Below, piece by piece: positions 18,714 through 32,895 of a DNA stretch of 64,000 nt (position 1 is the first letter of the stretch; every line of letters begins with the position of its first letter). The stretch is from an uncultured Desulfobacter sp. GTDB taxonomy: Bacteria; Desulfobacterota; Desulfobacteria; Desulfobacterales; Desulfobacteraceae. The position numbers and the translations under genes are program-made. Location: the NCBI GenBank assembly GCA_963665095.1, contig OY762069.1, forward strand, positions 2,400,001 through 2,464,000, written 5' to 3'. The notes below the pieces were generated by a model, which saw only the letters and a program-made list of their open reading frames with translations, made no database searches and was not told where the DNA came from.

Positions 18714-19647
18714 GGTAGGTGCCCGGGGTAGTGCCATAATGCTGCCGGAACTGGCGAATAAAGTGGGCTGTATCGTGAAAGCCCAAGGTGTACGCAGTTT
18801 CATCCACATTCATCTGCCCGGCTGAAAGAAGCCTAGCAGCCCTAACCATGCGATACTGCCGCAGGTAACCGAACACAGTGGTACCGTATACCTGGCGAAA
18901 TCCCCGTTTCAGTTTTGTATCATTGAGACCGGCTTTCCGGGCAAGGGTTTTCAGGGCAGGTGGCGCGTCTGCTTCCCGGATCAGGATATCCCTGGCATGG
19001 CAGATTTTTGCCCGGTCCTGGTCTGAAAGGGTATGGCCGGTGAGGCCGGACACTCCGGATTTTGCGGTTTCCCAGAGAAGGCGCAGTATCAGTTCCATGC
19101 TTTTGGCTTCAAGGTATCGGTTGTAAAAAGCACCCTGGTAGTCGCAATTGTAAATCTGGTCCAGGATCATGCGGGCGGCAGGACTGATATCCAGGGCCAG
19201 GTTGAAGGGGGCCTGATCCCTGTTTTCAAGGACGCGGCCAAGCCTTTGGGGCACCTGGCTGACATCTTCCTGCAACAGCCCGCGCAAGGTTTGGGGGGCA
19301 ATGTACAGGTTCAGCACCTTAAAGGTCTGCCGGGCGTTCATCCGGGTCAGGCACTGGCTTTCAGGGTTGAATGAGAGAACCGCTTTGCCGGGGCATACAT
19401 CAACCTGCTCTTTTTTTGAGGGGGAGCGTGTCATGGTGCCGGTGCCGCACCCTGCCAAATGAAAGGCAAAGGCCAGGGGAGCCTGATCAATATTAAATAC
19501 ATTTTGAGCCGCAGTTTCAGACCGGATATCCACAAACAACATCTCTATACCCGAAGGCAGGGAAACGTGTTTAAGGCCCCGGGGGTCCAGGCGGCCAAAG
19601 GCCTTTAAAAAACTCCATGACGTATTCAATGCAACTGCTGACATCAT
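18637..19647 (-). CDS. AraC family regulator, PchR-like
   Basis: YLEAKSMEL, LARKAGLNDTKLKRGFRQVYGTTVFGYL, HFIRQF; GAGGAG RBS at 19651-19657. Confidence 0.92.
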   Translation of the reverse strand: MMSAVALNTSWSFLKAFGRLDPRGLKHVSLPSGIEMLFVDIRSETAAQNVFNIDQAPLAFAFHLAGCGTGTMTRSPSKKEQVDVCPGKAVLSFNPESQCLTRMNARQTFKVLNLYIAPQTLRGLLQEDVSQVPQRLGRVLENRDQAPFNLALDISPAARMILDQIYNCDYQGAFYNRYLEAKSMELILRLLWETAKSGVSGLTGHTLSDQDRAKICHARDILIREADAPPALKTLARKAGLNDTKLKRGFRQVYGTTVFGYLRQYRMVRAARLLSAGQMNVDETAYTLGFHDTAHFIRQFRQHYGTTPGTYLKQARSTGPVLPEENPLLSCPGGDG

Positions 19648-19844
19648 CACTCTCCTCAATGTGGGACAGAGATAGCTCATCATATTAGCTTTGTCAAACA
19701 TTAGTTTTGAATTATTACAAAGATCAGGTATTCAAAATGTGCTCTCCAGATACCAATAAGATTCCTTTATTTACAATGACCAAAGGTCAATCCGGTTTAA
19801 TATGGCTTTGTAAACAGAAATTGTATTTTAAATAAGGAGGAAAC

Positions 19845-20471
19845 ATGATTTCCCAACTCAGACAAATTCGGCAACAATTTATCCAAAAAACCGCCAAACA
19901 GCCTGAAGGTGGCTGGGCCATAAAGCAATACAACGACCCCAAAGCCCATTACCGCTCATTCAGGATGGTCATGGACACATTGCGTCTTTCACAAGAGGAT
20001 GTGTATTGCGAAATCGGTTGCGGTGGCGGCGTTCTTTTAAAAATGGCCATGGAAAAGGCAGGCAGTGGTGCCGCACTGGACCACAGCCGGGATATGGTCA
20101 GCCTTTCCATTGAAAACAACCGGGACGCTGTGGATAGCAACCGGCTTGAGATTCTCCAGGGAAATGCCGAAGCGCTGCCCTGGCCGTCCCGGCGATTCAC
20201 TGCCTGTGCCTGTGCCAACATGTTTTTCTTTGTTGAACACCCCAATGCCGCTTTAGCTGAAATATTCAGAGTCCTTGCACCCGGCGGCCGGTTCTCCATG
20301 GTCACCGCCGGACAAAGCTTTTTAACCCGGATCACCATGGGATGGCTATATGGCCTGAACACCTATCCGGATGCCGCCATGTCCACCATGATGAAAAAAG
20401 CGGGCTTTTCAAACATCCGGGTAAAAACGGAAAGGACCGGCTTAACCCAGGTCTGCTATGGAAGGAAGTGA
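19845..20471 (+). CDS. class I SAM-dependent methyltransferase (Methyltransf_11 type)
   Basis: EIGCGGG, GNAEALPW, EIFRVLAPGG; AGGAGG RBS. Confidence 0.92.
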   Translation: MISQLRQIRQQFIQKTAKQPEGGWAIKQYNDPKAHYRSFRMVMDTLRLSQEDVYCEIGCGGGVLLKMAMEKAGSGAALDHSRDMVSLSIENNRDAVDSNRLEILQGNAEALPWPSRRFTACACANMFFFVEHPNAALAEIFRVLAPGGRFSMVTAGQSFLTRITMGWLYGLNTYPDAAMSTMMKKAGFSNIRVKTERTGLTQVCYGRK

Positions 20472-20830
20472 ACCAGACGGCGGCTTTTGCCCCGGACAGG
20501 CAGAAGGCAAAGGAGATCAGGGAAGAGGAGGTTGGCGGCGGTGCGGGGTCCTGGAAAATCACCAATGCAGTCAGTGCCCACACCAAAGGCGTGGAGCTCG
20601 AGGTCCTATCCCTTCCCACCCGGCATCTGGAACTGTTCGCAGGCCTTGGATATACCCGGGCTGAAATTGACGACGGACAGGCACGTTGAACGGTGCCGCC
20701 AAGGATTGCAGCGGCTGTATCCTGCCCTGGGCCCCGGATCTCACCGCAAACGCAGGCATCTCCTATACCAGTGACAGCGGCTGGTATGCCACGGTCCACC
20801 TGTTTCTGGCCGGAAAGCAGTATACTCAAC
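20468..20830 (+). pseudogene. internal remnant of a TonB-dependent receptor
   Basis: WKITNAVSAHTKGVELEV..LFAGLGYTRAEIDD, stop, then PDLTANAGISYTSDSGWY. Confidence 0.75.
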
Positions 20831-20961
20831 CTCCTCTGATCCAACCAAATTGAGTTTTGAATATCAAACATATTCAAAAAATATGAAATTTTATTGACTT
20901 CACTAATATAATTTTATATTTGAAATCTTTGCGGTGTTACGGCGTAAAAATGGAGGCAGGC

Positions 20962-21636
20962 TTGAAAAAAGGACCAGACCGGGATGTGTTTAACGGAGAG
21001 ATGTCCGGCCATTATCGTGAAATGCTCGAGTGTGGTGTGTCAAGACAGATTGCGCCTGAGTCCTTTCTGTTCCATGAGGGGTCGGATGCCGACACCTGTT
21101 ACCTGGTGACCCGGGGACTGCTTAAACTGTCAAAACTCGATGACCGCGGCAGAGAGGTCATTATCCGCTACGTCTCCCCCGGTGAGATGACTGCGACCCC
21201 GGTGGTGCTCAAGGGCGGCGTTTACCCGGTAACCGCCAGGGCCATGGAGCCTGCACAGGTCATTGCCTGGGACAGGGCCGGATTTTTGAACCTTACCCGG
21301 AAATATCCTGAAATGGTTCTGGATCTTGTTTTTATGGTTTTCGACCGCCAGGCCCAGATGCTGGAACGATTTCTTGCCCGAAGTTCCGAGCAGACGCCCC
21401 AGCGCATTGCAAGGCTGATGATCACGCTGATGGCCGACGCCGGACGGGAAAGCGAGGCCGGCATACACATAGGGATTCCTTTAAGCCGCCAGAACATTGC
21501 CGACTATATCGGTGCTTCCATGTACACGGTCAGCCGCATTATCAGCTCCTGGGAAAAATCCGGGTGGGTGACATCCTCGCGAAAGCGCATTACCGTCAAT
21601 GATCCCCAGGCACTGGCAGCCCTTGTCAACGGTTGA
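20962..21636 (+). CDS. Crp/Fnr family transcriptional regulator, NnrR-like
   Basis: LFHEG, YPVTA, PLSRQNIADYIGASMYTVSRIISSWE; no N-terminal FNR Cys cluster; start TTG 20962 after GGAGG (ATG 20950 alternative). Confidence 0.88.
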   Translation: MKKGPDRDVFNGEMSGHYREMLECGVSRQIAPESFLFHEGSDADTCYLVTRGLLKLSKLDDRGREVIIRYVSPGEMTATPVVLKGGVYPVTARAMEPAQVIAWDRAGFLNLTRKYPEMVLDLVFMVFDRQAQMLERFLARSSEQTPQRIARLMITLMADAGRESEAGIHIGIPLSRQNIADYIGASMYTVSRIISSWEKSGWVTSSRKRITVNDPQALAALVNG

Positions 21637-21832
21637 TATACGGTGAAAAATAATCCGCCCGTGTATTTTCCCTTCTTTTCCTGACCTACCCCTGACTGTT
21701 GGGACCATATCGCCAAAGGCACCATCTTTCTTCTTCCGGCAATTTTTTTTGCCCCTTCAGTACAAGTCTTTTTCATTTCTATTATTTTGTCATAGCTAAT
21801 TTTTTTTAAAGTTTTAAAAAAAATTTGTCAAA

Positions 21833-21875
21833 ACTTGCTCCAGCGCAAAGACAGCCTTAAAAAGCCGGATATAAT
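21833..21875 (+). promoter_or_regulatory. NnrR-type box and TATAAT -10 (class II activated promoter)
   Basis: ACTTGCT-CCAG-CGCAAAG 21833-21850 (TTGC-N6-GCAA core); TATAAT 21870-21875. Confidence 0.7.
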
Positions 21876-21920
21876 ACAACCTCAATGTCACCAATGAAAA
21901 GAAAAAAAGAGAGGCGCACC

Positions 21921-24900
21921 ATGATGTTAGGCCCGGCTTTAGGCATTGATGCGGGCACGTCCGCCATAAAACTGGTTGTCACAGATTCAGGCAACAGCCT
22001 TTCATACTCTGTTTACCGGCCACATGGCGGGACGCCGGGGGCCTGCCTGAAGGCCATGCTGTCAAAGGCGGCCGCCCGCTTCCCCACGGCCCGGATCGCC
22101 ATGACAGGTTCTTTGGCCCACAGCATTGCAGGGGCCTTGACAGGCGGAAAAAACAGCCTTCCCCTGTTCCTTGCGGATACGATTCCCGCCGCGGTAAACG
22201 GGTGCCGGGCCATGGCGCCCGAAGCAGGGTGCATCATGGAGATCGGGGCGGCCAGGGCCGTTTTTATCACCGGAATTTCAAATGATAATCCGGCCCAGGT
22301 AAAATTTTTTTTCAACTCCAGCTGTTCTGCCGGGACCGGATCTTTCCTGGAAGAGCAGGCAAGGCGGTTGAATATCCCTTTGGAATCGTTGTCTGAACAG
22401 ACCCGGAAAGCCACCCGGATACTTCCCATTGCCGGCCGATGCTCGGTGTTTTCCAAAACCGACATGATCCATTTTCAGCAGGACGGGGCCGGGACACCGG
22501 ACATTCTTCTGGGGCTGATCCATGCCATGGTGCGCAACTACAGGGCCAATGTGGTTAAGCGCAACCCCATTGCCGGGCCCGTATTCTTAGCCGGCCGGGT
22601 CATGGAGGTCCACGGCATCATTGACGCCCTGTCAAAAACATTTGGATTAGACTCCCAGGCATTTATTTTCTGCAGGGACCATTCATACGCCAATGCCTTT
22701 GGCGCAGCCCTGGCAATGCCCCCGGACACCCCGCCAATGAAAATTCCACAATTATGCCGCCTTCTTGACACAGGGTCCCGGACACCGGCCGCCGTTCTTA
22801 CGGCAGCCCCCCTGGCCCCTTTCGGAACCAATGATTCCCAAGGAAGGCACCCGTGTAAAAAAAACGGCTCCCCCGTGTCAGGCTACCTTGGGGTGGATGT
22901 GGGCTCCACATCCACCAACCTTGTGCTGATCAGCCCGGAAAAGGAAGTGTTACGCCTTTTATACCTTCGAACCCGGGGAACACCCCTGGATACTGTCAAG
23001 TCGGGCCTGGATCAAATCAGGCGGGAACTGGGACCGAATTTTTCCATCCTTGCTGCGGGCGTGACCGGGTCCGGCCGCAGCCTTGCAGGCAGATTTCTTA
23101 AAGCAGACCTGGTGGTCAACGAAATCACGGCCCAGGCCGAAGGCGCCCTGTTCCGGCACCCCGAGGCCGACACCATCCTTGAAATCGGGGGCCAGGATTC
23201 CAAGTTCATCCGCCTTGAAAACCAGGTGGTCACCCATTTTGAAATGAACCGCATCTGTGCGGCCGGGACCGGTTCTTTCCTGGAAGAGCAGGCCGCAAAA
23301 ATCGGCGTGGATATCCGGAATTTCGGTCCTCTGGCCCTCACGGCCCAAACGCCTCTGGACCTTGGGGAACGCTGCACGGTATTTATCGAGGGGGCCTTGT
23401 CAAACGCCCTGGGACGCCGGGAGGACAAGGCCGACATTGTTGCAGGCCTTGCCTACAGCATTGTACGCAACTACCTGACCCGGGTGGTGGCGGACCATCC
23501 CCTGGGGAACCATATTTTCCTGCAGGGCGGGATTGCATATAACCAGGGTGTGGTCAATGCCTTTCGCTCCCTTTTGGGGCGCCCGGTGACCGTCACCCCC
23601 TATTTTAGCGTGACCGGCGCCCTTGGGGCGGCCCTTCTGACCCGGTCCGGACATGTTTCAGGAAAAAGCCGCGCACCGGAAAAGGGTCTTTCACAACCGG
23701 CCGGTCCAAACACGAAAGACCGCCCAAAGGTTCCCGATATCTGGGCGGAATCCAGAGAATTGTTCATAAAAGACTACCAGCCCCACCGTTTTCCGGGGCG
23801 GCCAACCATCGGGATTCCAAGGGTGTTGTTTTTGCACAAGCTGTTTGTTCTGTTCAACCTGTTTTTTACCCGGCTTGGGTTCAATGTTCTCATCTCAGAG
23901 CCCACCACCCGGGAGATGGTTGACAAAAGCCGGGAGACCGCAATGGAGGAGACCTGCTACCCGGTCAAACTGGTCAACGGCCATGTTCAGGATCTGCTGG
24001 AAAAAGGGGTGGACTATATTTTCCTGCCCCGGATATTTACCATGAAGCACTCCGACTCCTGGTCGAGAAAAGATTATGGCTGCCTCTATTTTCAGACAGC
24101 GGCCCAGCTTGCCGGTTACGCCCTTGACCTGGAGGCCCGGGGCGTTTCGTTGCTCACCCCGGCCATTTCATTCAAGCTTGGGCCCCGGTATGTTGCAAAA
24201 ACCATTATTGATCTGGGCAAGGAGCTGGGGCAGTCCCGGCTGGCTACGATTTTGGCCATGCAAAAGGCTGCCCTGGGGTTTATGGGCTATAACCGTGCTC
24301 TGCACCGCTTGGGAAAACAATATCTCAAGGCCCTGCCAGCGGGTGAACCGGTGTTTGTCATCATTACCCGGCCATACGGCATCAACGATCCAGTACTCAA
24401 TATGTCAGTGCCTGAACACCTGTCATCCATGGGATACCACACCATGCCCCTTTTTGTGCTTGAGCCCGAGACCAATGGGCTTGACCAGGATTATCCCAAC
24501 ATGTACTGGCCCTTTGGCCAGCATATCCTGGCCGGCGCCAGGAAAATACGGCAGACCCCCAACCTTTTTGCCGTTTACCTGACCAATCACGGCTGCGGGC
24601 CGGATACGGCGCTGCTCCATCTTTTCCGAAAGGAGATGGCAGGCAAACCCTTTCTCCATCTTGAGGTGGACGAGCATGCATCCCGGGTGGGCGTAATCAC
24701 ACGGCTTGAGGCCTTTGTCCTAAGCTTTGACAAAAAAAAGGTGGCTGAAACCCAAGCCCTGCCGCCGGCAGGACTGCTGTGTGAGCCTGACAAAAAGGTG
24801 CCGCTGTATATTCCACACCTTTTTCCCTATGCCGACCTGGCCTGTGCCGTGTTATCGGAAAAAGGGTTTGCCGCCCGGGTCCTGCCGCCTTTGGATGCAG

Positions 24901-25874
24901 ACAGCCTTGCCCATGGCCGCAGCCTGGGCGTGGCCAAGGAGTACCTGTCCTTTATCAGCCTCATGGGCAATGCGAAAAAACAGGCGATAAAGGGCAATGG
25001 AAGGCCCCAGACCCTTGTGATCCCCCAGACCGAAGGGGCTGAAGTGGAAGGCCTTTACGCCCGGGCAATCTCATCCCTGCTCTCTGAAGAGTTTCCCGAA
25101 ACCCGGATCTTTTCACCCTTTCTGGAAGATATTGTCACTGCTTCGGATTTTTTTGACCGGTTTTTCCTGCCATTGATGGCCGCCGACATCATCCGCTCCG
25201 GACCGGTCCGAAACCTGGAAAAAAACCTGGGCCATGTTCTGACGTCTGTCAGTGTCCTGACCGAAGATGCCGTTATTGATCTGGCCGCTGAAACAGCCGG
25301 TCAAACGGCTGATCCAGGAAAGACAGAAGCGCTGACGCTGCTGGTCACAGGGGAACCGGCGGTGGTGTTCTCGGAGTTTAACCATCAGTTTCTCCTGGAA
25401 GCGGTGCACGCCAGAATCCTGTGGCAGCCTTTATCCGAAGTGCTTTACCTGTTGTGGGAAGACTGGAACCACCGCCGCCGGGATCCCGTGGTGATCAAGC
25501 ACCTGGCCTGGTGCCGGAAACTCATGGTCCGGGTGGCCGGGGTCCTGGGCCCCTGCAGCGCCTTTGAACCCGACCCCGGGCTTTTAAAACCTGCCGCAGA
25601 CAGCATCCTGGAAATGTTTACCGGGGGCAACGGCCGCTACCGCATGGCCAAACGATTCACCCGGACAGCTCCCAACGGCATTGTTGAAATGGGGTCAGCC
25701 TATGAAAACACAGGGATTATCACCCGGCAGCTGGCCGAAACCAGACCGGCCGGGATTCCGGTTCTAAGCCTGGTCTTTGACGGCAGTGCCCACAACAAAA
25801 ATGCCGAGCTTCTGCGAAATTTCATCTATTACCTGTCCGGGGCTCACAGGCAGGCCGCCAAAACAAACGACTAA
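21921..25874 (+). CDS. acyl-CoA dehydratase activase-like protein (2x BadF/BcrAD ASKHA ATPase + DUF2229)
   Basis: GIDAGT and GVDVGSTST, CSAGTGSFLEEQA and CAAGTGSFLEEQA, RCSVF and RCTVF, ETCYPVK, HGCGPD, EVDEH. Confidence 0.92.
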   Translation: MMLGPALGIDAGTSAIKLVVTDSGNSLSYSVYRPHGGTPGACLKAMLSKAAARFPTARIAMTGSLAHSIAGALTGGKNSLPLFLADTIPAAVNGCRAMAPEAGCIMEIGAARAVFITGISNDNPAQVKFFFNSSCSAGTGSFLEEQARRLNIPLESLSEQTRKATRILPIAGRCSVFSKTDMIHFQQDGAGTPDILLGLIHAMVRNYRANVVKRNPIAGPVFLAGRVMEVHGIIDALSKTFGLDSQAFIFCRDHSYANAFGAALAMPPDTPPMKIPQLCRLLDTGSRTPAAVLTAAPLAPFGTNDSQGRHPCKKNGSPVSGYLGVDVGSTSTNLVLISPEKEVLRLLYLRTRGTPLDTVKSGLDQIRRELGPNFSILAAGVTGSGRSLAGRFLKADLVVNEITAQAEGALFRHPEADTILEIGGQDSKFIRLENQVVTHFEMNRICAAGTGSFLEEQAAKIGVDIRNFGPLALTAQTPLDLGERCTVFIEGALSNALGRREDKADIVAGLAYSIVRNYLTRVVADHPLGNHIFLQGGIAYNQGVVNAFRSLLGRPVTVTPYFSVTGALGAALLTRSGHVSGKSRAPEKGLSQPAGPNTKDRPKVPDIWAESRELFIKDYQPHRFPGRPTIGIPRVLFLHKLFVLFNLFFTRLGFNVLISEPTTREMVDKSRETAMEETCYPVKLVNGHVQDLLEKGVDYIFLPRIFTMKHSDSWSRKDYGCLYFQTAAQLAGYALDLEARGVSLLTPAISFKLGPRYVAKTIIDLGKELGQSRLATILAMQKAALGFMGYNRALHRLGKQYLKALPAGEPVFVIITRPYGINDPVLNMSVPEHLSSMGYHTMPLFVLEPETNGLDQDYPNMYWPFGQHILAGARKIRQTPNLFAVYLTNHGCGPDTALLHLFRKEMAGKPFLHLEVDEHASRVGVITRLEAFVLSFDKKKVAETQALPPAGLLCEPDKKVPLYIPHLFPYADLACAVLSEKGFAARVLPPLDADSLAHGRSLGVAKEYLSFISLMGNAKKQAIKGNGRPQTLVIPQTEGAEVEGLYARAISSLLSEEFPETRIFSPFLEDIVTASDFFDRFFLPLMAADIIRSGPVRNLEKNLGHVLTSVSVLTEDAVIDLAAETAGQTADPGKTEALTLLVTGEPAVVFSEFNHQFLLEAVHARILWQPLSEVLYLLWEDWNHRRRDPVVIKHLAWCRKLMVRVAGVLGPCSAFEPDPGLLKPAADSILEMFTGGNGRYRMAKRFTRTAPNGIVEMGSAYENTGIITRQLAETRPAGIPVLSLVFDGSAHNKNAELLRNFIYYLSGAHRQAAKTND

Positions 25875-26003
25875 TTTTAATAATTCTTGACTTATTTTTT
25901 AAGGAATGATTAATAAATTGACTTTCAAGCAACAAAGTATTTTTCGATCTCTAATCCAGGGACCGTTTAACCGGTGCCCGCAAAGGAATACAGGTGGTGT
26001 TTC

Positions 26004-26705
26004 ATGAAGATAATAACCATAGCCGGCACCCCTTCTTCGGGTAAAACAGCCGTGGTTTCAGCACTTGCCCGGTTGTACCGGGCCCGGGACATTCAAGTTG
26101 CGGCAGTCAAATTTGACGCCCTGGCCACCACGGATGACGTCTGGTTCCGGGAGCGGGTGGGGATACCTGCCATCAAGGGGCTGGGGGCATACATCTGCCC
26201 GGATCACTTTTATGTGTCCAATCTTGAAGAGGCGGCACAATGGGGCTGGGACCAGGAGGCCCGAATCCTTTTTATGGAAACCGCCGGACTGTGCCTGCGG
26301 TGCGCCCCCCATATTGAAACCATACCCGCGGTAACGGTGACCGATCTTCTGGCCGGCATGGACGCCCCTGAAAAGATGGGGCCGTTGTTAAGCCTGGCCG
26401 ACGTGGTGGTGGTCACCAAGGCGGATATGGTTTCCCAGGCCGAAAAAGAGGTCTTTATCCACGGCATTGAAAAGGTCAATCCCAGTGCCCGAATTTTCCA
26501 GGTTAACGGGCTTACCGGGTCCGGTGCCCTGCCCTTGAAACGGCTCATGGATACCTGGCCTGAACATAATGACCTGACCGGTTTGAGCCTTAGATACGCC
26601 ATGCCCGCCTCTGTGTGTTCCTATTGCACCGGGGAGACGCGGATCGGGTCACAGTTCCAGTCAGGTAATGTGACTAAAATGTCAATTAACGGGGGCGGGC
26701 AATGA
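26004..26705 (+). CDS. HypB/UreG/CobW-like (G3E) GTP-binding protein
   Basis: GTPSSGKT, CPDHF, ETAGLCLRC, TKAD, CSYC. Confidence 0.88.
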   Translation: MKIITIAGTPSSGKTAVVSALARLYRARDIQVAAVKFDALATTDDVWFRERVGIPAIKGLGAYICPDHFYVSNLEEAAQWGWDQEARILFMETAGLCLRCAPHIETIPAVTVTDLLAGMDAPEKMGPLLSLADVVVVTKADMVSQAEKEVFIHGIEKVNPSARIFQVNGLTGSGALPLKRLMDTWPEHNDLTGLSLRYAMPASVCSYCTGETRIGSQFQSGNVTKMSINGGGQ

Positions 26706-27553
26706 ACCGTACTGCAAAACAAAGATCACAGCAGGGCCGGCCGGTGCAATACCTGAAAGGCAGGCCCATGGGGTTTGGCATCGAAATATCAGGGGGCACC
26801 TGCAAGGACGGCTCGCCCGAGCCCCTGGACCATGTGCATATCGCCCCGGGAGAAAGCGTTGCCATTATCGGGCCCACCGGCTCCGGAAAGAGCCAGCTGC
26901 TGTCGGACATTGAGCAGGCGGCCTGCGGGGATACGGTATCAGCAAGGCATGTGAGCATTAAAAACGGGCGGCCGGGCAATGATCCGGCAGACCCGGCGGA
27001 CCGCCCCGGCCCCATGTCTCCGGGGACAGGGCTGGTGGCCCAGCTCACCCAGAAAACCTCCTTTATCATGGACTGCACGGTGGAAAGGTTTCTGAAACTT
27101 CATGCCCTAAGCCGGCACCGCACAGAGCCGGGCCTGACGGACATGGTCCTTGAAAAGGCAAATGCCCTGAGCGGAGAGCCCATATCGGCGGACACCAATC
27201 TGCAGGTGCTCAGCGGGGGACAGTCCCGGGCCCTGATGATTGCCGATATCGCCTGTATCTCAGACTCCCCGGTGGTGCTTATTGATGAAATTGAAAACGC
27301 CGGTATTGACAAGCTGGCGGCCCTGAAAATCCTCAGTGACAGCCAAAAACCCATCCTCATCGCCACCCATGATCCCGTGCTGATGCTCATGGCCGACAAA
27401 AGGCTTGTAATGGCCAAAGGGGGCATGTCAAAGCTTTTGTCCGTGACTCCCGGCGAGCAGGCATCCCTTGGGCAGCTGAAAAAAATGGACCGGGCCATGA
27501 CCCTGGCAAGGGAGCAACTTCGTTCCGGACAACCTTTAAACGTGCAAATGTAA
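26702..27553 (+). CDS. ABC-type ATPase
   Basis: GPTGSGKS, LSGGQ, LIDE, ATHD. Confidence 0.92.
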   Translation: MNRTAKQRSQQGRPVQYLKGRPMGFGIEISGGTCKDGSPEPLDHVHIAPGESVAIIGPTGSGKSQLLSDIEQAACGDTVSARHVSIKNGRPGNDPADPADRPGPMSPGTGLVAQLTQKTSFIMDCTVERFLKLHALSRHRTEPGLTDMVLEKANALSGEPISADTNLQVLSGGQSRALMIADIACISDSPVVLIDEIENAGIDKLAALKILSDSQKPILIATHDPVLMLMADKRLVMAKGGMSKLLSVTPGEQASLGQLKKMDRAMTLAREQLRSGQPLNVQM

Positions 27554-27577
27554 TTGTGCTTAATTTCAGGAGATGTT

Positions 27578-28453
27578 ATGGCAGACATCCATTTGGCTAT
27601 CCCACCGAATATCCTGCGCAAAACCGCAGATGACCTGAAGGTGAAATTCCCGGACATCACCATCAGGCCCCACCAGACCCATTCCGAAATGGCGGCCTTT
27701 TTTGCCGATGATTTTGGTGACCTTGAAAAGACCGCGGACCTGACCCTGGCAGCCTACCCTTCAGCCCTGACCAACTGCATGACCCAAAAGGAGGGCGGTA
27801 TTTTCCAGGCCATGCCCCATGATCTGCCAGCGCTGTGTCCATACCTGGCCGGGGCCGGGTTTGGCGAATCCACCCCGTTTTACCGGGTGGTGGCCGTGGT
27901 GACCCTGGTGTTTATTGCAAACCGGCAGATTGACCCCTTTCCCAAATCCTGGCGGGACCTTTGCGGGCAAGCGTTGCGGGACAAGGTCGTGATCCCGCCC
28001 GAAGAGACCCCGGCACCGGCGCTCTATGCCTACTACATGGAAAAATTTTTCCAGGAAATCGGCCGCAGGGCCGCCCGGGCGGTTCACCAAAACCTTTTAC
28101 CCCAGCAGATCAATGTGGCCGTAGACCTGGGCCGGTATGCGGCAGGAATGGTTTTTCCCGCCTTTGCCCGGACCTTTCGCTCGGGGAACGCGGCCATGGT
28201 CTGGCCTGAAGAGGGGGCCCTGACCCTGCCCCTCCTGGCCTTTTTAAAAAAAGGTGCCCCGGCTGCGGCCAAGGCCGTACTGGCCTTTGTGATGGGGCAT
28301 GAATACCAGAGCTTTCTTTCTTCCAGCGGCCTTTTTTGCCCCATTCGGGAGGATGTGCCGAAATTTGAAGAACTTGAAGATGAAAACAACAGGTTAAACT
28401 GGATGGGATGGCCGGATTATTGTGCCATGGCCCAGTTCAATGCATATAAATAA
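27578..28453 (+). CDS. substrate-binding-protein fold (AfuA/PotD-like) without signal peptide
   Basis: PKSWRDL, VWPEEGALTLP, FCP motifs; AGGAG RBS; no hydrophobic leader. Confidence 0.75.
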   Translation: MADIHLAIPPNILRKTADDLKVKFPDITIRPHQTHSEMAAFFADDFGDLEKTADLTLAAYPSALTNCMTQKEGGIFQAMPHDLPALCPYLAGAGFGESTPFYRVVAVVTLVFIANRQIDPFPKSWRDLCGQALRDKVVIPPEETPAPALYAYYMEKFFQEIGRRAARAVHQNLLPQQINVAVDLGRYAAGMVFPAFARTFRSGNAAMVWPEEGALTLPLLAFLKKGAPAAAKAVLAFVMGHEYQSFLSSSGLFCPIREDVPKFEELEDENNRLNWMGWPDYCAMAQFNAYK

Positions 28454-28465
28454 AGGAGAAAAAAA

Positions 28466-30550
28466 ATGAACCGGTTTCAACGTATGCTCATAACAGGTTT
28501 GGTATTATTCCTGCTCCAGGCCCCCGGGACAGTCTGTGCGCAAAACAGTGAAGAGGTATCAGATCAGGACCATGAAGCTGTCAATGTGGATGAACTTCTG
28601 GTCACGGCAAGGGGGGTGGAAAGCCAGGTGTCCCAAACACCCGGAGGAACGGCCGCCATGGATGCCCAACAACTTTACCAGGCCCAGGACCCCAGCATCA
28701 CCAACACCCTGACCCGGATCCCCGGGGTGGACAAATCCTCGGATTCGGCCTGGGGCTCAGCCATCAACATCAGGGGCCTTGGACGAAACCACGTGGTGTT
28801 TCTCATTGACGGGTGCAGGGTCAACACGGCAACAGATGTCAATGCCCAGTTCGGACTTATCAATTCATACGAGGTGGAACGTATTGAAATCCTGAAAGGG
28901 CCGGTATCTGCCCTCTACGGATCCGGAGCCATGGGCGGGGTGGTCAACGTGATCACAAAAAAAGGCTATTTTTCCGATGAGACTACCAGTGAAACCAGCC
29001 TGGGAGCAAGCTTTGGCACAAACCCGGAAGGGTTCAGTCTCTTTGGTGACACCCGGGTGAACACCCCCGACTTCTGGATTTACGGTGCGGCATCCCGGCG
29101 GGATTATGACTCCTATGAAAACGGGGATGGGGACACCCAGGCAAACAGCCAGTTTGAAGATTACAGCGGCAGCTTGAAAGCCGGTTACAAGTGGAATGAA
29201 AAAAACATCACAGATATCAACATTCAATATATGAAAGGAGAGGATATCGGTATCCCCGGCAAGGGGCTTTCCCTGCCGACAGGCCCGACCATCACCTATC
29301 CGGATACAGACCGGACCCTGGTGAGCCTGACCCACAAATTTACACCCGAAGACAGCATCCTGACCGCATCCGACCTCAACCTTTTTTACCAGGAGATTGA
29401 CCGGAATGTGGAGATGGTGTTCCCGGCAGGGTCTGCGGCCACCAGCATCAATCCATCGGCCAACCACAAGTCCTTTGGCGGCAAATGGCAGAATGTCATC
29501 GGCCTGGCTTCCCAGACCATTGTCACGGGCCTGGATGTCTGGACCTGGGAGATCGAGTCCACCCGGGAAAAAAATCTGGCCTCGGGCCTTACCGGCATTG
29601 ACACCCCCCTGGCCGATGCCAAACAGCTTTCGGCAGGGCTTTTCCTGGAAGACGATATTCAGATCGGGCAACCTTTTGTCCTGAACCTGGGCGGCCGTGT
29701 GGACTATATCAGCGCCAAAAGTGACCCGCTGTACAACTGGATCACTCCGCCGTCTGCCAGGATTCCCGTCACCCTGATCCGGGATGGGGAGGATAACGAT
29801 GATGTGAGCTGGGATGCCCATGCAGGCCTTACCTGGGACATATCCTCACCCTGGTCCATGACCCTGCTGGGTGCTTTTTCATACAGGGCCCCGGACCTGA
29901 TGGACAGGTACAAATATGTCGCCTTTACCGGCGGTGCCACCTATGGAAATCCCGATCTTGATCCCGAGCGCTCCTCGTTCATTGAATACGGGATTCATTA
30001 CCGTACCCCGAAAATTTCCTTTTCCGGCTCTGTCTATGCCAATTATTTAAAGGATATGATCGCATCAAGGCTCAAGGACGCCGCAACAAATACCTACCAG
30101 ATGGAAAATATTGACAAGGCAAGGCTGTATGGCGGAGAGCTTGAGGCAAAATACCGTCCCGTTGAAAAATGGGAGATTTACGCCGGCATCGCCTATGTCA
30201 GGGGGACTGATGAGACAGATGATTCCAACCTGTCTATGATCCCGCCCCTTAACGGTATTGCGGGCGTAAGCTTTGCTCAGGGCGACAAGGGATTCTGGGC
30301 AGACTGCAACCTGACCTGGGCAGACCGCCAGGACAAGGTGGCCTCGGGCGAACAGGAGACCGCAGGTTGGGCCACGGTTAATGCCAAAGCCGGCTACAAA
30401 TTTGATTGCGGCAGATTCGGCCATGATATCATGATGGGCGTGGATAATATTTTTGATGCCCAGTATGCCAACCACCTGTCAACGACCCGGTCCGTTCTCT
30501 TGGCCGAGCCCGGTGTAAATATTTACGCGGCCTACAGGGTGACCTTCTAA
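28466..30550 (+). CDS. TonB-dependent receptor (heme/B12-like clade, ligand unknown)
   Basis: ELLVTARG, ERIEILKGPVSALYGSGAMGGVVNVIT, YRAP...NPDLDPE, C-terminal Phe. Confidence 0.93.
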   Translation: MNRFQRMLITGLVLFLLQAPGTVCAQNSEEVSDQDHEAVNVDELLVTARGVESQVSQTPGGTAAMDAQQLYQAQDPSITNTLTRIPGVDKSSDSAWGSAINIRGLGRNHVVFLIDGCRVNTATDVNAQFGLINSYEVERIEILKGPVSALYGSGAMGGVVNVITKKGYFSDETTSETSLGASFGTNPEGFSLFGDTRVNTPDFWIYGAASRRDYDSYENGDGDTQANSQFEDYSGSLKAGYKWNEKNITDINIQYMKGEDIGIPGKGLSLPTGPTITYPDTDRTLVSLTHKFTPEDSILTASDLNLFYQEIDRNVEMVFPAGSAATSINPSANHKSFGGKWQNVIGLASQTIVTGLDVWTWEIESTREKNLASGLTGIDTPLADAKQLSAGLFLEDDIQIGQPFVLNLGGRVDYISAKSDPLYNWITPPSARIPVTLIRDGEDNDDVSWDAHAGLTWDISSPWSMTLLGAFSYRAPDLMDRYKYVAFTGGATYGNPDLDPERSSFIEYGIHYRTPKISFSGSVYANYLKDMIASRLKDAATNTYQMENIDKARLYGGELEAKYRPVEKWEIYAGIAYVRGTDETDDSNLSMIPPLNGIAGVSFAQGDKGFWADCNLTWADRQDKVASGEQETAGWATVNAKAGYKFDCGRFGHDIMMGVDNIFDAQYANHLSTTRSVLLAEPGVNIYAAYRVTF

Positions 30551-30551
30551 A

Positions 30552-31547
30552 ATGAAACTTAAATTTTGGATCGCCGTGGCACTGGTCCTTACCGGACTGA
30601 TCGGTACCGGCGGGTACCTGAGCCTGGATAAAAAGGGCAGCGGGCAGTTCACCCTGGGGCAAAACCCGGACCTGCCCACCCTGACCTTTTATACCACAGG
30701 CCTTGCCACCACCCCCCAGCTTGCCTTCTGGCATGCTGTAAACCAGGGCAGCATCCTTGAAAGGTGCAATATCAGGGTCTGCCTGTGGAAAAACCTGGAT
30801 GATCTGAGGGGAATTTTACTGGCCGGCAAAGGGGACCTGTGGCTGGGGCATACCGACGGGTTTGTCCAGGCGGCCCGCCGGGGCGCACCGGTTCAACTGA
30901 TGATCACATCCGGGTGGCGGAAGTTCTACCTGGTGTCAAGGGATCCGGGCAAAATACGCTTTGCCGATTTCAGGGGCAACACCCTTGCCGTTGCCCCGCC
31001 CGGATCACCGGCAATGCCCGTCCTTGAAAAGATGATGGGAAAAGAGGACAAACAAATCTCCTTTGTCTCCCATGAACCCCGGCAACTGGCCATGAAGCTT
31101 GCCAAAGGCATGGTGGATGCAGCCGTGTTGCCCGAACCTTTGGTCTCGGTTATCCTGGGCAAAGTCAATGACCTGGTACCGGGAGAAAATCTGGAATCCG
31201 CCTATGGCAGGTTCTGCGGGGGAGAGCCCAGGATGCCCATTGCAGGCTTGGCTGTAAATGCCGGGACAGCAGAAAAATATCCCGGTCTGATCCGGTTCAT
31301 TGAAGGCGAGATCCTCGACCACTCGCGGCAGATCCAGGACCATCCCCGGGAGGCGGTTCGGACCCTGCCGGCGCAGTTCAGGTCATTTGTCAGGGAAGAG
31401 GCCGTTGTCCGCTCCCTGGACAGGGACCTGGTCTTTGCGGCAAGATCCCTGGATGTAAAGGCGGAGATCATGGACTATGTCTTCCTGATTCAGTCCGGGC
31501 TGAAAGGGCCTGAAACAGGCCTTGCCGAATCAATATTCTGGAGATAA
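30552..31547 (+). CDS. ABC transporter substrate-binding protein (NitT/TauT type)
   Basis: N-terminal anchor, ADFRG.TL, VDAAVLPEP. Confidence 0.82.
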   Translation: MKLKFWIAVALVLTGLIGTGGYLSLDKKGSGQFTLGQNPDLPTLTFYTTGLATTPQLAFWHAVNQGSILERCNIRVCLWKNLDDLRGILLAGKGDLWLGHTDGFVQAARRGAPVQLMITSGWRKFYLVSRDPGKIRFADFRGNTLAVAPPGSPAMPVLEKMMGKEDKQISFVSHEPRQLAMKLAKGMVDAAVLPEPLVSVILGKVNDLVPGENLESAYGRFCGGEPRMPIAGLAVNAGTAEKYPGLIRFIEGEILDHSRQIQDHPREAVRTLPAQFRSFVREEAVVRSLDRDLVFAARSLDVKAEIMDYVFLIQSGLKGPETGLAESIFWR

Positions 31548-31550
31548 GCC

Positions 31551-32294
31551 GTGCCTTTTATGTTCTGCCTTGGCATCATTGCCGGTATATGGATGATCGC
31601 GCATCTTGCCTTTGGTGAAAGCCTTGTGCCCTGTCCAGGTGACACGTTTTCAACCCTGGCCGGCATGGTATGCACAAAGGATTTCTGGGTACACCTGAAT
31701 ATCACCTTGTTCAGGGGTGTCCTGGCACTTGGTGCGGCAGTGGCCGCCGCCCTGGTACTGGGCATCGGGGCCGGTCGGTATGGAAAACTCATGGATCTTG
31801 TCTCGCCCCTTGCGGCCTTTGTCCAGGCGGTGCCGCCCATCCTCTGGATCACCCTGGTCATGGTCTGGGCCGGCACAGGCAATGCCGTGCCTGTCCTGGT
31901 GGTGTTTGCCTCTTTGCTGCCGCCGCTTTTCATGACCGTGGCCATGGCAACGGCCAGCCTGAACCCGCAGTTTTTCCAGTTAAGGCAGATCTACCATATC
32001 CCCGGGCCTGTCATTATTAAAGACCTTATTTTGCCCGGTATTTTCCCCCATTTTGTAGGGGGGTTTTCATTTGCCCTGGGCTCCTGCCTGAAAGTGGCGG
32101 CTGTGGCTGAATTTCTGGGCGCAGAACAGGGGATCGGGGCAAGGATTTACTGGGCCTACCGCATGATGGAAATGGAGAGGCTTTTTGCCTGGGCCCTGGT
32201 GCTGGTGGGCCTGGGCATGGGCCTTGATCATTTCCTGGTCAGGCCCCTTCGCCGGATCTCACAATCCTATGGGGCGCATAATGCTGATACTTGA
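31551..32294 (+). CDS. ABC transporter permease (NitT/TauT type)
   Basis: Multiple TM segments, TLFR, VPP, AVAEFLG..GIG. Confidence 0.9.
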   Translation: MPFMFCLGIIAGIWMIAHLAFGESLVPCPGDTFSTLAGMVCTKDFWVHLNITLFRGVLALGAAVAAALVLGIGAGRYGKLMDLVSPLAAFVQAVPPILWITLVMVWAGTGNAVPVLVVFASLLPPLFMTVAMATASLNPQFFQLRQIYHIPGPVIIKDLILPGIFPHFVGGFSFALGSCLKVAAVAEFLGAEQGIGARIYWAYRMMEMERLFAWALVLVGLGMGLDHFLVRPLRRISQSYGAHNADT

Positions 32295-32895
32295 CAATAT
32301 TTGCAAAGCCTACAACGGCACCCCGGTGCTGGACCGGGTAAATATCCGGATCAAGCCGGGGGACATGCTCTGCCTTGCCGGCAAGTCCGGCATTGGAAAA
32401 TCCACCCTGCTCTCCATTGCCGCAGGCCTTGAAAAAGCGGACAGCGGCCGGGTAATACAACAGTATTCATCGGCCGGGTTTGCCTTTCAACTGCCTGTTC
32501 TCCTGCCGTGGAAAACCACTTGCGAAAACATGGCCTTTGTCCTGTCGGGCAAAAAGAGAGCTGGGGCAGAAGATTCAATCGCCTGCTGGCTGGAAAAACT
32601 CGGGCTGTCTGATGCCGCAGACAAACGGCCCGACCAGTTGAGCGGTGGCATGAAAAAACGGCTGGGCCTTGGCACGGCCCTGGTCACAGCACCTGATTTC
32701 CTGTTTTTAGACGAGCCCTTTACCTTCCTGGACCAGCAGTGGCAGCAAACCATTGCCGAAATCCTGCTGGATTTGAAACAGACAAAAGGCACCACCGTTT
32801 TCATGGCAAGCCATGAACTTGACCCGGTGCGACGGATGGGGGCAACCATTTTCCCGGCAGACTTTTTATTGTCAGAGCACGGTCTTTGTCCGTAA
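32281..32895 (+). CDS. ABC transporter ATP-binding protein (NitT/TauT type)
   Basis: GKSGIGKS, FQ...LLPW, LSGGM, LDEPF, SH. Confidence 0.92.
   Translation: MLILDNICKAYNGTPVLDRVNIRIKPGDMLCLAGKSGIGKSTLLSIAAGLEKADSGRVIQQYSSAGFAFQLPVLLPWKTTCENMAFVLSGKKRAGAEDSIACWLEKLGLSDAADKRPDQLSGGMKKRLGLGTALVTAPDFLFLDEPFTFLDQQWQQTIAEILLDLKQTKGTTVFMASHELDPVRRMGATIFPADFLLSEHGLCP

Follow-up and report, generated by a model that had tools for sequence, protein, structure and literature searches.

Within the window analyzed here, a 64,000-nucleotide stretch from an uncultured Desulfobacter sp., nine genes lie in a row between 20962 and 32895, and the question that they raise is whether they make up one system. An earlier note had proposed that they do, with a nitric oxide (NO)-sensing regulator inducing a pathway that imports a metal complex, releases the metal reductively and delivers it to metalloclusters. 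Much of the underlying description holds: all nine open reading frames are present on the plus strand where they had been placed, their domain assignments are borne out by matches to family profiles, and the junctions across 26004-32895 (in order, a 4-nt overlap, 0 to 24 nt, 12 nt, 1 nt, 3 nt, and a 14- to 26-nt overlap) bear out the overlapping or <25-bp spacing. The locus as a whole, however, is two adjacent units of separate history and not one system. The first is a Crp/Fnr regulator paired with a reductase (here called the activase), a pair that relatives keep elsewhere; the second is a widely conserved block of seven genes (26004-32895) whose likely role is to bring a scarce metal through the outer membrane. 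Our best explanation of the whole, which we hold to have a slightly better than even chance of being right, is that the two units were joined and that the block carries out TonB-dependent uptake of a scarce metal, with the cargo passing inside the cell to a GTPase that is predicted to dock on a membrane-less ABC ATPase.

The Crp/Fnr regulator and the activase are a separate unit

The first unit consists of a Crp/Fnr-family regulator (20920-21636, plus strand; HTH_Crp_2 plus cNMP_binding) and a double-ASKHA+DUF2229 protein, the activase (21885-25874, plus strand), which has two BcrAD_BadFG stretches plus DUF2229 and lies outside the conserved block. The activase scores 239.9 bits against TIGR00241 (cut-off, 125.4), and both of its ASKHA domains keep C-x-AGTGSFLEEQ and R-C-[ST]-VF. 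Its open reading frame encodes 1329 amino acids; translation likely starts at M13 (21921), which yields the 1317-amino-acid form and is where the alignment of orthologues begins.

We compared 88 loci encoding the GTPase of the block, 23 from the window's clade and 65 from other (sister) clades; neighbor counts are raw, and the loci are related to one another. Neither the regulator nor the activase adjoins the GTPase at any of them (0/88). No locus among the 88 holds an activase homologue covering at least 40% of the query, a single-domain homologue occurs on the opposite strand in 1 of 80 GTPase loci (L054), and a Crp homologue is found in only 3 of the 88. The pair has its own operon in relatives. 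All four same-genus genomes examined have activase orthologues (65 to 68% identity) within a string of Crp, a 245-amino-acid protein, a multiheme cytochrome, a TonB receptor and the activase, with the Crp orthologues (53 to 57% identity) 4.1 to 4.5 kb upstream of the activase; the GTPase block is absent from all four strings. The genomes with the blocks most similar to that of the window (L005 and L003) carry activase paralogues only 41 to 43% identical, located elsewhere, and no orthologue. Together, these comparisons show that the Crp/activase pair has been conserved on its own, apart from the block, and the link that the earlier note had drawn between the activase and the downstream genes fails.

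Nothing that we found ties the regulator to NO sensing. Its best NCBIfam matches (FixK, NtcA, CRP and FnrL) are all far under their cut-offs, neither the window nor the surroundings of the four activase orthologues contain an hcp- or nor-type gene, and the sequences upstream of the activase and of the GTPase have no FNR-type box. The nitrosative-stress induction proposed for the locus would have the Crp-type regulator drive all eight downstream genes, the activase reductively free the imported metal, and the GTPase deliver it for cluster repair. The co-orientation of the nine genes, the lack of a terminator-like site between activase and GTPase, and the persistence of that junction fit such an arrangement: across 24800-27800, which spans the junction, 0.80 to 1.00 of sampled words were present in sequencing runs of three studies, so the juxtaposition is not an assembly artifact of one data set. 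Set against the neighbor counts, the different operon of the orthologous pair, the missing NO-related genes and the receptor remnant and AT-rich gap on either side of the pair (described below), we consider a single NO-induced system very improbable.

The juxtaposition could also be recent and yet functional, with this clade of activases acting on cargo of TonB receptors (for example, by ATP-driven low-potential reduction) and one member recruited beside the receptor of the block in this strain. A TonB receptor gene directly precedes the activase in 4/4 orthologous loci examined, and one lies near three of four paralogues of 39 to 41% identity (L099, L100 and L121), two of these three loci also having an AraC gene and one a Methyltransf_11 gene; in contrast, none of six members of an activase group of about 30% identity has a receptor nearby. 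The window's own activase is 2.6 kb from a receptor. Such proximity comes cheap, however, because genome G000 has >20 receptor genes, and the four orthologues share ancestry and amount to roughly one event. The receptors are moreover not orthologous (that of L095 matches the receptor of the block over the plug domain only, at 33% identity), and no GTPase locus elsewhere holds an activase at the 40% coverage threshold. We regard functional recruitment as rather unlikely.

The flanks carry a rearrangement scar and a likely AraC regulator

Just upstream of crp is the decayed remnant of a TonB-dependent receptor (20500..20830, plus strand), comprising about 100 frameshifted codons of the C-terminal third. 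By tblastn, it matches the window's receptor at 11226-13331 (residues 527-581; E = 5.6e-12) and continues in a second frame; this remnant is a rearrangement scar. On the other side of the pair, an AT-rich 130-nt gap (25875..26003, plus strand) separates the activase from the GTPase. It contains TTGACT-17 nt-TTAATA as a candidate promoter of the block itself; the promoter scan missed this pair of hexamers because the second base of the −10 hexamer is T. Since no terminator-like hairpin was listed by the scan of this gap, read-through into the block from the activase promoter is possible.

Farther upstream is an AraC-family regulator (18637..19701, minus strand; HTH_18), which likely controls the uptake block. 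At 9 of the 23 clade loci (L005, L008, L009, L011, L014, L015, L023, L024 and L025), the GTPase gene is directly preceded by an AraC homologue; in the window, the AraC gene is 6.3 kb from the block, with other genes between. Among these is a SAM-dependent methyltransferase (19845..20471, plus strand; Methyltransf_11) whose membership in the block is uncertain: homologues of 41 to 43% identity occur near the block only in L006 and L008, and 22 additional loci have other Methyltransf_11 genes alongside the module. A 680-amino-acid TonB-dependent receptor (16284..18326, plus strand; Plug plus TonB_dep_Rec_b-barrel), which is not in the conserved block, may be an accessory of this AraC/methyltransferase module, and its 32%-identity homologues are found beside the homologous methyltransferase upstream of the block only in those same two loci.

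A conserved seven-gene block joins probable uptake genes to a cytoplasmic trio

The block runs in the order G3E GTPase, ABC ATPase, signal-less binding protein, TonB receptor and NitT/TauT-type importer. All seven genes occur in this order at 15 of the 23 loci of the window's clade; of the others, 7 run into the end of a contig or locus, and in L005 the final two genes are missing. The GTPase and ATPase genes reach much farther as a pair. Of 599 pattern matches, 591 were confirmed, which gives an estimate of about 990 such stretches in 185,579 species genomes; we found no curated name for the pair.

The transport genes begin with a TonB-dependent outer-membrane receptor (28466-30550, plus strand; Plug plus TonB_dep_Rec_b-barrel) that has a signal peptide and a TonB-box-like DELLVTA and is conserved in place at 19 loci. 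It is followed by the exported binding protein of the importer (30552-31547, plus strand), also conserved in place at 19 loci, which has a hydrophobic N terminus and a weak likeness to SsuA/NMT1 and matches no Pfam family above the cut-off. The permease (31551-32294, plus strand; BPD_transp_1) has SaoP, SsuC, TauC and NtrB as its best NCBIfam matches, all below cut-off, and the importer ATPase (about 32281-32895, plus strand; ABC_tran at 86 bits) is nearest to taurine, sulfonate and nitrate ATPases. ExbB/TonB genes lie upstream of the block in four related loci (L003, L007, L025 and L017). Of the import and metal-delivery pathway first suggested, metal import and handover by this block are plausible, whereas the regulator and activase are not members.

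The core of the module is the G3E-family GTPase (26004-26705, plus strand), which matches the cobW/HypB/UreG family at 34.4 bits (cut-off, 20.7) and carries the P-loop GTPSSGKT, ETAG and TKAD. It had been described as Cys rich, and the motifs CPDH (75-78), CxRCAPH (107-113) and CSYC (215-218) are indeed invariant across 14 sequences. Next to it, the membrane-less ABC ATPase (abcX; 26702-27553, plus strand; ABC_tran) has no membrane partner of its own; Walker A, Q117 of the Q-loop, LSGGQ, D195-E196 of Walker B and H223 are invariant across 24 sequences. The two genes are inseparable neighbors, with abcX adjoining the GTPase in 86 of 88 loci, and the third member of the trio is either a signal-less binding protein (39 loci) or DUF364 (39 loci).

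Structure prediction suggests that the GTPase binds abcX. Three runs gave ipSAE values, which are model confidence and not a measurement, of 0.82, 0.84 and 0.82, whereas the best of three controls gave 0.00; 116 of 157 solved complexes reach the pass mark, as do 2 of 215 mismatched pairs. Predicted contacts agreed by at least 92% between runs, with a partner pLDDT of at least 79. For both chains, even the closest relatives of solved structure are distant, and recall of a solved complex is therefore unlikely. In the predicted complex, the invariant GTPase helix VSQAEKEV packs against the Q-loop region of the ATPase, at the place where the coupling helix of a permease would sit in a transporter.

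The cytoplasmic binding protein (27554/27578-28453, plus strand; SBP_bac_6) is signal-less as claimed: none of 20 aligned homologues has a signal peptide, and all start with M..I.L..PPNI.R. Its model (pLDDT, 93.9) has ferric-ion binding proteins as the nearest solved folds (Z = 22.2; RMSD, 3.2 to 3.4 over 278 residues). R14, W125, F196, R198, R201, W209, Q244, W275 and W278 are invariant; no Cys, His or Tyr is invariant in the alignment, and the Tyr/His ligands of the ferric binders are absent.

Neighboring genes point to different cargoes in different clades

We put the cargo of the window's block as a divalent cation of the Zn/Co/Ni class at somewhat short of an even chance and as molybdenum or tungsten at a lower but still appreciable one; the remainder falls to other cargoes. 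Cation-metal transporters adjoin the block at 6 of the 23 loci of the window's clade versus 0 of 65 in other clades, with P1B heavy-metal ATPases beside it in L003, L006, L010 and L011 and NicO plus DUF1007 in L012 and L013. Mo/W markers show the reverse distribution, 0 of 23 versus 10 of 65. At sister-clade loci, they comprise Moco riboswitches (L032, L033, L062 and L074), modA/B (L057, L071 and L082), MoeA/MoaA (L061) and nif operons (L072, L074 and L119). In the window, none of the genes beside the block is of the P1B, NicO or Mo/W kind.

We also observed that the cargo signals of the two clades conflict though the GTPase motifs and the invariant residues of the binding protein are identical.

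The sister-clade markers, often within the same gene string, raise the alternative of a route like that of those clades, in which Mo/W is scavenged through the TonB receptor in sulfidic water, possibly as a thio- or chelate complex, and feeds a Mo/W chaperone. G3E Cys/His sites are known for Ni and Zn; we know of none for oxyanions, which weighs against this route. It is also at odds with the marker counts in the window's clade, with the lack of a Mo/W marker at any NitT/TauT-linked locus, and with G000, where modAB and a WtpB-like permease are encoded elsewhere and Moco riboswitches are lacking altogether. In its favor, linked FecCD importers have PBP-type binding proteins whose closest solved group includes HI_1472 (158 bits), siderophore, heme and B12 binders scoring at most 115 bits; the GTPase motifs and the invariant Arg, Trp and Gln of the cytoplasmic binding protein are identical in the riboswitch-linked clade; and G000 has five AOR-family genes. 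In addition, M. maripaludis has DUF364 in a mod operon that is cofit with nifH, according to a preprint (bioRxiv 10.1101/2024.03.05.583561). On balance, a Mo/W route is a tentative alternative that we hold to be less likely than not.

It is improbable that the substrate is non-metal or organometallic, as in the SAO system, or is heme or an iron chelate, with the GTPase/ATPase pair serving another purpose. SaoP is the best NCBIfam match of the permease, SaoA is also matched by the ATPase, and TonB-hemin is the best subfamily match of the receptor, but the scores fall far under their cut-offs (70 versus 295, 102 versus 360, and 226 versus 317 bits, respectively). Conserved Cys residues are absent from the permease and both binding proteins, and no SaoL/MerB-like or heme-handling gene occurs in any locus scanned. 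The ferric-binder fold of the cytoplasmic binding protein likewise favors iron, but the ferric ligands are missing from it.

A proposed pathway and its relation to known systems

For scarce-metal uptake, we infer the following pathway. The receptor would carry a metal complex across the outer membrane, and the NitT/TauT-type importer would move it into the cytoplasm, where the signal-less binding protein would capture an anionic form. The GTPase/ATPase pair, by hydrolysis of ATP and GTP, would then drive the metal via the Cys/His site of the GTPase to client enzymes. The block would be controlled by the AraC regulator and not by Crp.

Parts of the locus resemble characterized systems. Double-cubane cluster protein reductase and the activators of 2-hydroxyacyl-CoA dehydratase and benzoyl-CoA reductase are ASKHA ATP-driven electron donors (PMC9351452). 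The 1329-amino-acid protein likewise has two activator-type ASKHA domains with two Cys motifs each; unlike those activators, it is fused to DUF2229, lacks a neighboring dehydratase, BcrBC or DCCP gene in the window, and in relatives comes after a TonB receptor and a multiheme cytochrome.

The sister-clade modules are fused to importers such as MolBC-A (HI1470/71/72) and ModABC, which import molybdate/tungstate, and to Moco riboswitches. The window's importer is instead a NitT/TauT-type system that comes with a TonB receptor and has an SsuA-like binding protein, and it matches no Mo/W transporter model.

The G3E GTPases HypB and UreG serve in nickel insertion, HypB for hydrogenase and UreG for urease. 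The window's GTPase belongs to the same Pfam family (PF02492), has UreG (4hi0; E = 1.7e-8) and HypB (2hf8; E = 2.4e-5) as its nearest solved relatives, and shares the P-loop, ETAG and TKAD signatures; its Cys-Pro-x-His presumably lies near the position of the UreG Cys-Pro-His, and we take a Cys after the Walker B strand to correspond to that of HypB. It nevertheless scores far under the equivalog cut-offs (hypB, 42.9 versus 121.2; ureG, 25 versus 204), has extra invariant CxxC motifs, and has an ABC ATPase as its constant partner rather than HypA/SlyD or UreE/F/D, with no hydrogenase or urease genes beside it.

In SufBCD, the soluble ABC ATPase SufC powers the cytoplasmic scaffold for iron-sulfur assembly. 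Like SufC, abcX has the full set of catalytic motifs and lacks a permease of its own, and it is predicted to grip a soluble partner at its Q-loop face; that partner is a GTPase and not SufB/SufD, and abcX has no detectable specific sequence kinship to SufC, its best PDB matches being assorted transporter ATPases (E of about 1e-5).

TonB-dependent metallophore uptake systems with AraC-type regulators include those for pyochelin (PchR/FptA) and yersiniabactin (YbtA/Psn). The block similarly has a receptor, an ABC importer with its periplasmic binding protein, and an AraC regulator nearby, with ExbB/TonB genes beside it in the four related loci, but its importer is from another family, the window's block has no metallophore synthesis genes, and it adds the cytoplasmic trio. 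Block 26004-32895 is a conserved, uncharacterized set in which a TonB receptor and an ABC importer are joined with a trio of G3E GTPase, membrane-less ABC ATPase and cytoplasmic binding protein.

The regulator and activase genes are separate from the seven-gene block

The locus is a composite: a conserved block, likely for metal uptake, which includes a putative G3E chaperone and has an undescribed GTPase-ABC ATPase core, lies downstream of two genes that are not part of it. An earlier note had read all nine genes as one nitric oxide-induced system for metal import and delivery. The nine open reading frames are indeed present and co-oriented, all on the + strand. The first two encode a Crp/Fnr regulator (crp, 20920-21636; cNMP_binding and HTH_Crp_2 domains by Pfam and NCBIfam) and a 1329-aa protein with two BcrAD_BadFG (ASKHA) stretches and a DUF2229 domain (the activase, 21885-25874; Pfam and NCBIfam). 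The block itself encodes a cobW/HypB/UreG-family GTPase (26004-26705; Pfam), an ABC ATPase (abcX, 26702-27553; Pfam), an SBP_bac_6 binding protein (sbpX, 27578-28453; Pfam), a TonB-dependent receptor (28466-30550), an SsuA/NMT1-like binding protein with a hydrophobic N-terminus (sbp2, 30552-31547), a BPD_transp_1 permease (31551-32294) and the second ABC ATPase, that of the importer (~32281-32895), the last four assigned by Pfam and NCBIfam. The tight spacing from 26004 onward was also borne out, as neighboring block genes either overlap or are separated by no more than 24 nt.

An alignment of 14 GTPase homologues was used to fetch related loci, with one genome per species. We confirmed 591 of 599 pattern matches, estimated ~990 stretches in 185,579 species genomes, and kept 80 loci. 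The window's nine proteins were compared with these by tblastn, and 8 same-genus loci were then added, for a total of 88. An activase match of any length occurred in one of the 80 loci (L054, a single-domain homologue on the opposite strand), and Crp matches occurred in three, downstream and on the opposite strand; at a query coverage of at least 40%, the activase was found in 0 of 88 loci and Crp in 3. The neighborhood search that the earlier note had called for, with GTPase, ATPase, binding protein and activase as a set, therefore recovered the first three as a recurrent trio, whereas the activase did not recur.

The activase has its own history. Full-length orthologues (65-68% identity) are present in five same-genus genomes, and in the four loci fetched (L095 to L098, from genomes G013, G005, G021 and G016) the same strand carries a Crp orthologue (53-57%) 4.1-4.5 kb upstream every time. 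The string in these relatives runs Crp/Fnr regulator, 245-aa protein without a family, multiheme cytochrome c, TonB receptor, activase, with the end of the receptor gene abutting the start of the activase gene, and genes of the GTPase block are absent from all four loci. The genomes with the nearest blocks, L005 (GTPase 91%, next genes 84-89% identity) and L003 (54-70%), hold activase paralogues of only 41-43%, placed elsewhere, and same-genus genomes hold GTPases of only 45-51% identity in other arrangements. The block and the activase thus dissociate both ways, and with the activase in an operon of its own in relatives, the proposal of a single nine-gene system does not stand; what survives of it is the conserved block resembling metal uptake, to which neither the regulator nor the activase belongs.

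The surroundings of the segment were inspected in the window. The stretch 20500-20830, between a methyltransferase gene and crp, matches the receptor at 11226-13331 (E = 5.6e-12) and is what remains of a frameshifted TonB receptor gene. With crp and the activase taken out, the window's order would be receptor, AraC (- strand), methyltransferase, block, which resembles L008 and L006. The activase stop and the GTPase start are separated by an AT-rich gap of 130 nt that carries TTGACT-17-TTAATA. A sequence scan found no terminator-like hairpin in this gap, so read-through from the activase into the block may occur in this strain. Repeats flanking the crp-activase segment did not exceed chance-sized matches. 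The window has exactly two copies of the 15-nt word AGTNNNGAATTATTA, one at 19703-19717 (+) in the AraC/methyltransferase gap and one at 25878-25892 (-) in the activase/GTPase gap, on either side of the inserted segment. We considered this word as an operator and rejected it: allowing two mismatches to a pattern derived from both sites gave 3 matches against 3.5 expected, and it is absent from the other loci.

Nothing that we found ties the regulator to nitric oxide, as had been claimed. Its best NCBIfam matches, FixK, NtcA, CRP and FnrL, scored 45-59 bits where the cut-offs are 245-300, and no NnrR, Dnr or HcpR subfamily model was among its NCBIfam matches. Genes of the hcp, nor and nir types were absent from the larger open reading frames of the window and from beside the orthologue in L095 and L098. 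The pattern TTGA-N6-TCAA with at most one mismatch gave 37 matches against 34.5 expected, none of them in 21637-21920 or 25875-26003, though the regulator's own motif may differ. A perfect 9-bp inverted repeat, TTTGAATAT-N5-ATATTCAAA (20857-20879), immediately precedes the promoter-like site of crp and may be an operator.

The activase matched TIGR00241 in two stretches (239.9 bits against a cut-off of 125.4), and both ASKHA domains keep C-x-AGTGSFLEEQ and R-C-[ST]-VF, motifs that we take to bind the bridging cluster in activators. No dehydratase or reductase that could serve as its partner was found in the window, where models of benzoyl-CoA reductase subunits scored far below their cut-offs. 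The string of L095 to L098 is an unusual pairing in its own right, as it sets an outer-membrane receptor and a cytochrome of the periplasm beside an ATP-driven reductase of the cytoplasm. We weighed whether this reductase is functionally tied to TonB-dependent uptake. Within the genus, its clade sits beside TonB receptors in all 4 orthologues and in 3 of the 4 paralogues (39-41% identity), against 0 of 6 members of a group at ~30%. However, the receptors are not orthologous, and the window's genome (G000) holds more than 20 receptor genes, and we consider such a tie unlikely.

A GTPase and an ABC ATPase form the core of the block

A quick maximum likelihood tree (IQ-TREE) of 88 GTPases, from which L005 was left out because its match is truncated, resolved three clades. 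Clade A, that of the window, has 23 rows including the window (SH-aLRT 98) and takes in all the TonB-receptor plus NitT/TauT loci of Gram-negative anaerobes; of the sister clades, C (13 rows, SH-aLRT 95) has forms with a signal-less binding protein, and B (52 rows, SH-aLRT 99) has mostly DUF364 forms. Counts of clade A loci refer to 22 tree loci plus L005. The L005 match (9980-10528) begins at residue 68 and lacks the P-loop part; the gene may be truncated, or the assembly may be broken there.

The seven genes keep the window's order in 15 of 23 clade A loci; a contig or locus end interrupts the block in seven more, and L005 is without the last two genes. ExbB, ExbD-associated and TonB genes lie upstream of the block in L003, L007, L025 and L017. 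An AraC homologue stands directly upstream of the GTPase gene in 9 of the 23 loci, and the regulator that recurs with the block belongs to the AraC family, not to Crp.

Across all clades, the GTPase gene is followed by the ABC ATPase gene in 86 of 88 loci, the exceptions being L071 (contig edge) and L049 (where DUF364 comes next to the GTPase). As its third member, the core has a signal-less binding protein in 39 loci and a DUF364/DUF4213 protein in 39, so that the trio of GTPase, membrane-less ABC ATPase and either third protein is present in 78 of 88 loci (26004-28453 in the window). The importer varies: NitT/TauT type in 19-20 of the 88 loci, FecCD with a Peripla_BP_2 protein in 28-30, and ModABC in L057 and L071. 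It is absent from the minimal loci L115, L116, L117 and L120, in which the GTPase and the ATPase are joined only by a binding protein. Genes for class I methyltransferases are found with 24 of the loci.

The GTPase-ATPase pair carries no curated name. The GTPase, abcX, sbpX and sbp2 all stayed below the cut-offs of the NCBIfam families, and no molybdenum or tungsten transporter model of that collection reached its curated cut-off in the block. The models of SAO organometallic transport also fell short (SaoP, 70.3 against 295; SaoA, 102.1 against 360). The module is undescribed in the literature that we searched on DUF364/DUF4213, G3E molybdate/tungstate metallochaperones and TonB-dependent molybdenum or tungsten uptake in sulfate reducers, and the portion available to us of a fitness study of D. 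vulgaris (PMC10102598) does not mention it.

Other parts of the window contain further uptake and metal genes. Three more modules of AraC and a TonB receptor lie at 11226-14499, 16284-20471 and 36433-42085, two of them with a methyltransferase and the third with an MFS transporter; these modules and the block form a ~30-kb island of TonB-dependent uptake genes. Genes for AAA_14 plus DUF4143 ATPases lie at 2967-4274 and 14696-15904, one of them between two receptor modules. At 51116-61485 (- strand), 18 kb from the block, a run of genes encodes a MoCF_biosynth-domain protein, an AMP-binding enzyme, a radical SAM protein with an HMPTM zinc ribbon, a Fer4/CCG-domain protein and a molybdoenzyme of the xanthine dehydrogenase family.

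The GTPase is predicted to dock on the ABC ATPase

G3E GTPases are defined by a P-loop, a Walker B glutamate (ExxG) and an N/TKxD motif. The GTPase of the block matched PF02492 over residues 13-175 (34.4 bits against 20.7), and G18-P-S-x-G23-K24-T25, E102-T-A-G105 and T148-K149-x-D151 are invariant in 14 sequences. Its description as cysteine rich was confirmed in the same alignment, in which CPDH, CxRCAPH and CSYC are invariant; the first of these (C75-P-D-H78), between the P-loop and Walker B, is a putative metal site. We rejected it as a HypB, UreG or ZigA equivalog (NCBIfam: hypB, 42.9 against 121.2; ureG, 25 against 204.2; ZigA, 18.5 against 600). The ATPase abcX matched PF00005 (40 bits against 25), and it keeps every catalytic motif, with Walker A, Q-loop, LSGGQ, Walker B D-E and H-loop unchanged across 24 sequences. 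It is without a cognate membrane domain, the window's importer having the second ATPase of its own. Long forms of abcX have an N-terminal extension of ~90 residues; DUF1858 was considered for this extension and rejected, as there was no resemblance (E = 0.03). Homologues of sbpX in L034 and L037 are SBP_bac_6 proteins with an N-terminal DUF1858 domain.

Prediction of a GTPase-abcX complex, with each chain given as an alignment, returned ipSAE values of 0.82, 0.84 and 0.82 in three runs, while the best of three controls was 0.00. Contact agreement between runs was at least 92%, and partner pLDDT was at least 79. The pair thus passed a mark that 116 of 157 solved complexes and 2 of 215 mismatched pairs attain, counts that apply only roughly here, where our own alignments were used. 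The scores express the confidence of a model rather than a measured interaction. Recall of a solved complex is unlikely because solved relatives of both chains are only remote. On the GTPase side, the predicted interface is the invariant stretch 152-164 (VSQAEKEV), just after TKAD; on the abcX side, it comprises residues 68-78, 106-123 (including the Q-loop Q117), 130-138 and 179-189. In ABC transporters, this face grips the coupling helix of the permease. From the model, we infer that ATP-driven closure of abcX would act on the GTPase. The predicted docking of the GTPase at the usual site of a permease offers a concrete structure for testing.

The binding protein, and conflicting signals on the metal from neighboring genes

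The call of sbpX as signal-less was upheld, as a signal peptide is absent in 20 of 20 aligned SBP_bac_6 homologues. Its model has a pLDDT of 93.9. In a wide VIA-align search, the nearest solved folds were ferric-ion binding proteins (Z 22.2 and RMSD 3.2-3.4 over 278 aligned residues), and next came binders of phosphonate, sugar-phosphate, GABA, metal-citrate, thiamin, polyamine, sulfate and molybdate. Unlike the ferric-ion binders, sbpX lacks the Tyr/His ligands. The residues that stay invariant in it are Arg, Trp, Gln and Phe, and these hint that its ligand may be anionic.

Molybdenum or tungsten markers were found in 10 of 65 loci of clades B and C and in 0 of 23 of clade A, whereas P1B or NicO transporters of cation metals were found in 6 of 23 clade A loci and in 0 of 65 of the others; since the loci are mutually related, both sets of counts serve as leads and not as tests. 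Among clades B and C, copies of the Moco/tungsten riboswitch are present in L032 (five copies), L033 (four), L062 and L074, upstream of FecCD importers or of the whole string. Several of the aptamers are in tandem, four in L032 (10920-11724), where they precede a formate-dehydrogenase/NuoG-like gene, and three in L033 (17045-17625). The modA and modB genes of L057 exceed their curated cut-offs, and modA also occurs in L071 and L082; MoaA and MoeA are present in L061, and MoeA in L074. Nitrogenase genes recur as well: L072 has a string of nifH, nifB-like, nifD, nifK and a homocitrate-synthase-like gene followed by the trio, L074 has riboswitch, importer, methyltransferase, nifD/K-like genes and nifH followed by the trio, and L119 has nifHDK nearby. 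The nearest solved set for the Peripla_BP_2 proteins includes HI_1472 (158 bits), which we take to be the molybdate/tungstate binder MolA, with siderophore, heme and B12 binders at no more than 115 bits. For DUF364, the portion available of an earlier paper proposes that it takes part in chelating heavy metals and lists transport neighbors for molybdenum, tungsten, vanadium and iron (PMC2954201), and the accessible part of a preprint reports for M. maripaludis that DUF364 lies in a modABC operon showing cofitness with nifH, and cautions about polar effects (bioRxiv 10.1101/2024.03.05.583561).

In clade A, P1B heavy-metal ATPases adjoin the block in L003 (copper type), L006, L010 (two copies) and L011 (cadmium/zinc family); NicO with DUF1007 is found in L012 and L013, and a MerR-type regulator lies near the block in L015. 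The window itself has no P1B, NicO or molybdenum/tungsten gene beside the block, and an Rfam search of the window returned tRNA only, with no Moco riboswitch. This missing riboswitch is uninformative, because RF01055 has no match anywhere in G000. That genome does hold modAB, a WtpB-like permease (below cut-off) and five AOR-family genes.

The molybdenum/tungsten signal of clades B and C and the cation-metal signal of clade A conflict. The module's metal may differ by clade, given the different metal company that the clades keep. Conversely, the GTPase motifs and the invariant sbpX residues are identical in clades A and C, which argues for one chemistry across these two clades and against a simple metal switch.

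Implications and relation to known systems

We know of no nucleotide-driven chaperone for molybdenum or tungsten, and to our knowledge little is known about how sulfate reducers obtain trace metals made insoluble by sulfide. One speculative reading, which we put forward as a rather unlikely possibility, would be that the GTPase in the coupling-helix groove of the permease-less abcX is a new engine, run by two nucleotides, that extracts scarce thiophilic metals and hands them over, and that has been plugged by evolution onto at least three importer types. The window would then hold its TonB-dependent form and the first dedicated outer-membrane route for a trace metal (zinc/cobalt/nickel class, or molybdenum/tungsten) in sulfate reducers, and the adjacent ATP-driven reductase may have been recruited to act on that cargo.

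What the window adds is the TonB-receptor-fed clade of the module, the different metal company of that clade, and the dissection of a misleading juxtaposition. The last is also a caution, as two unrelated units mimicked one system through co-orientation and tight spacing. Compared with known systems, the block would work like TonB-dependent uptake of metal chelates joined to a G3E metallochaperone.
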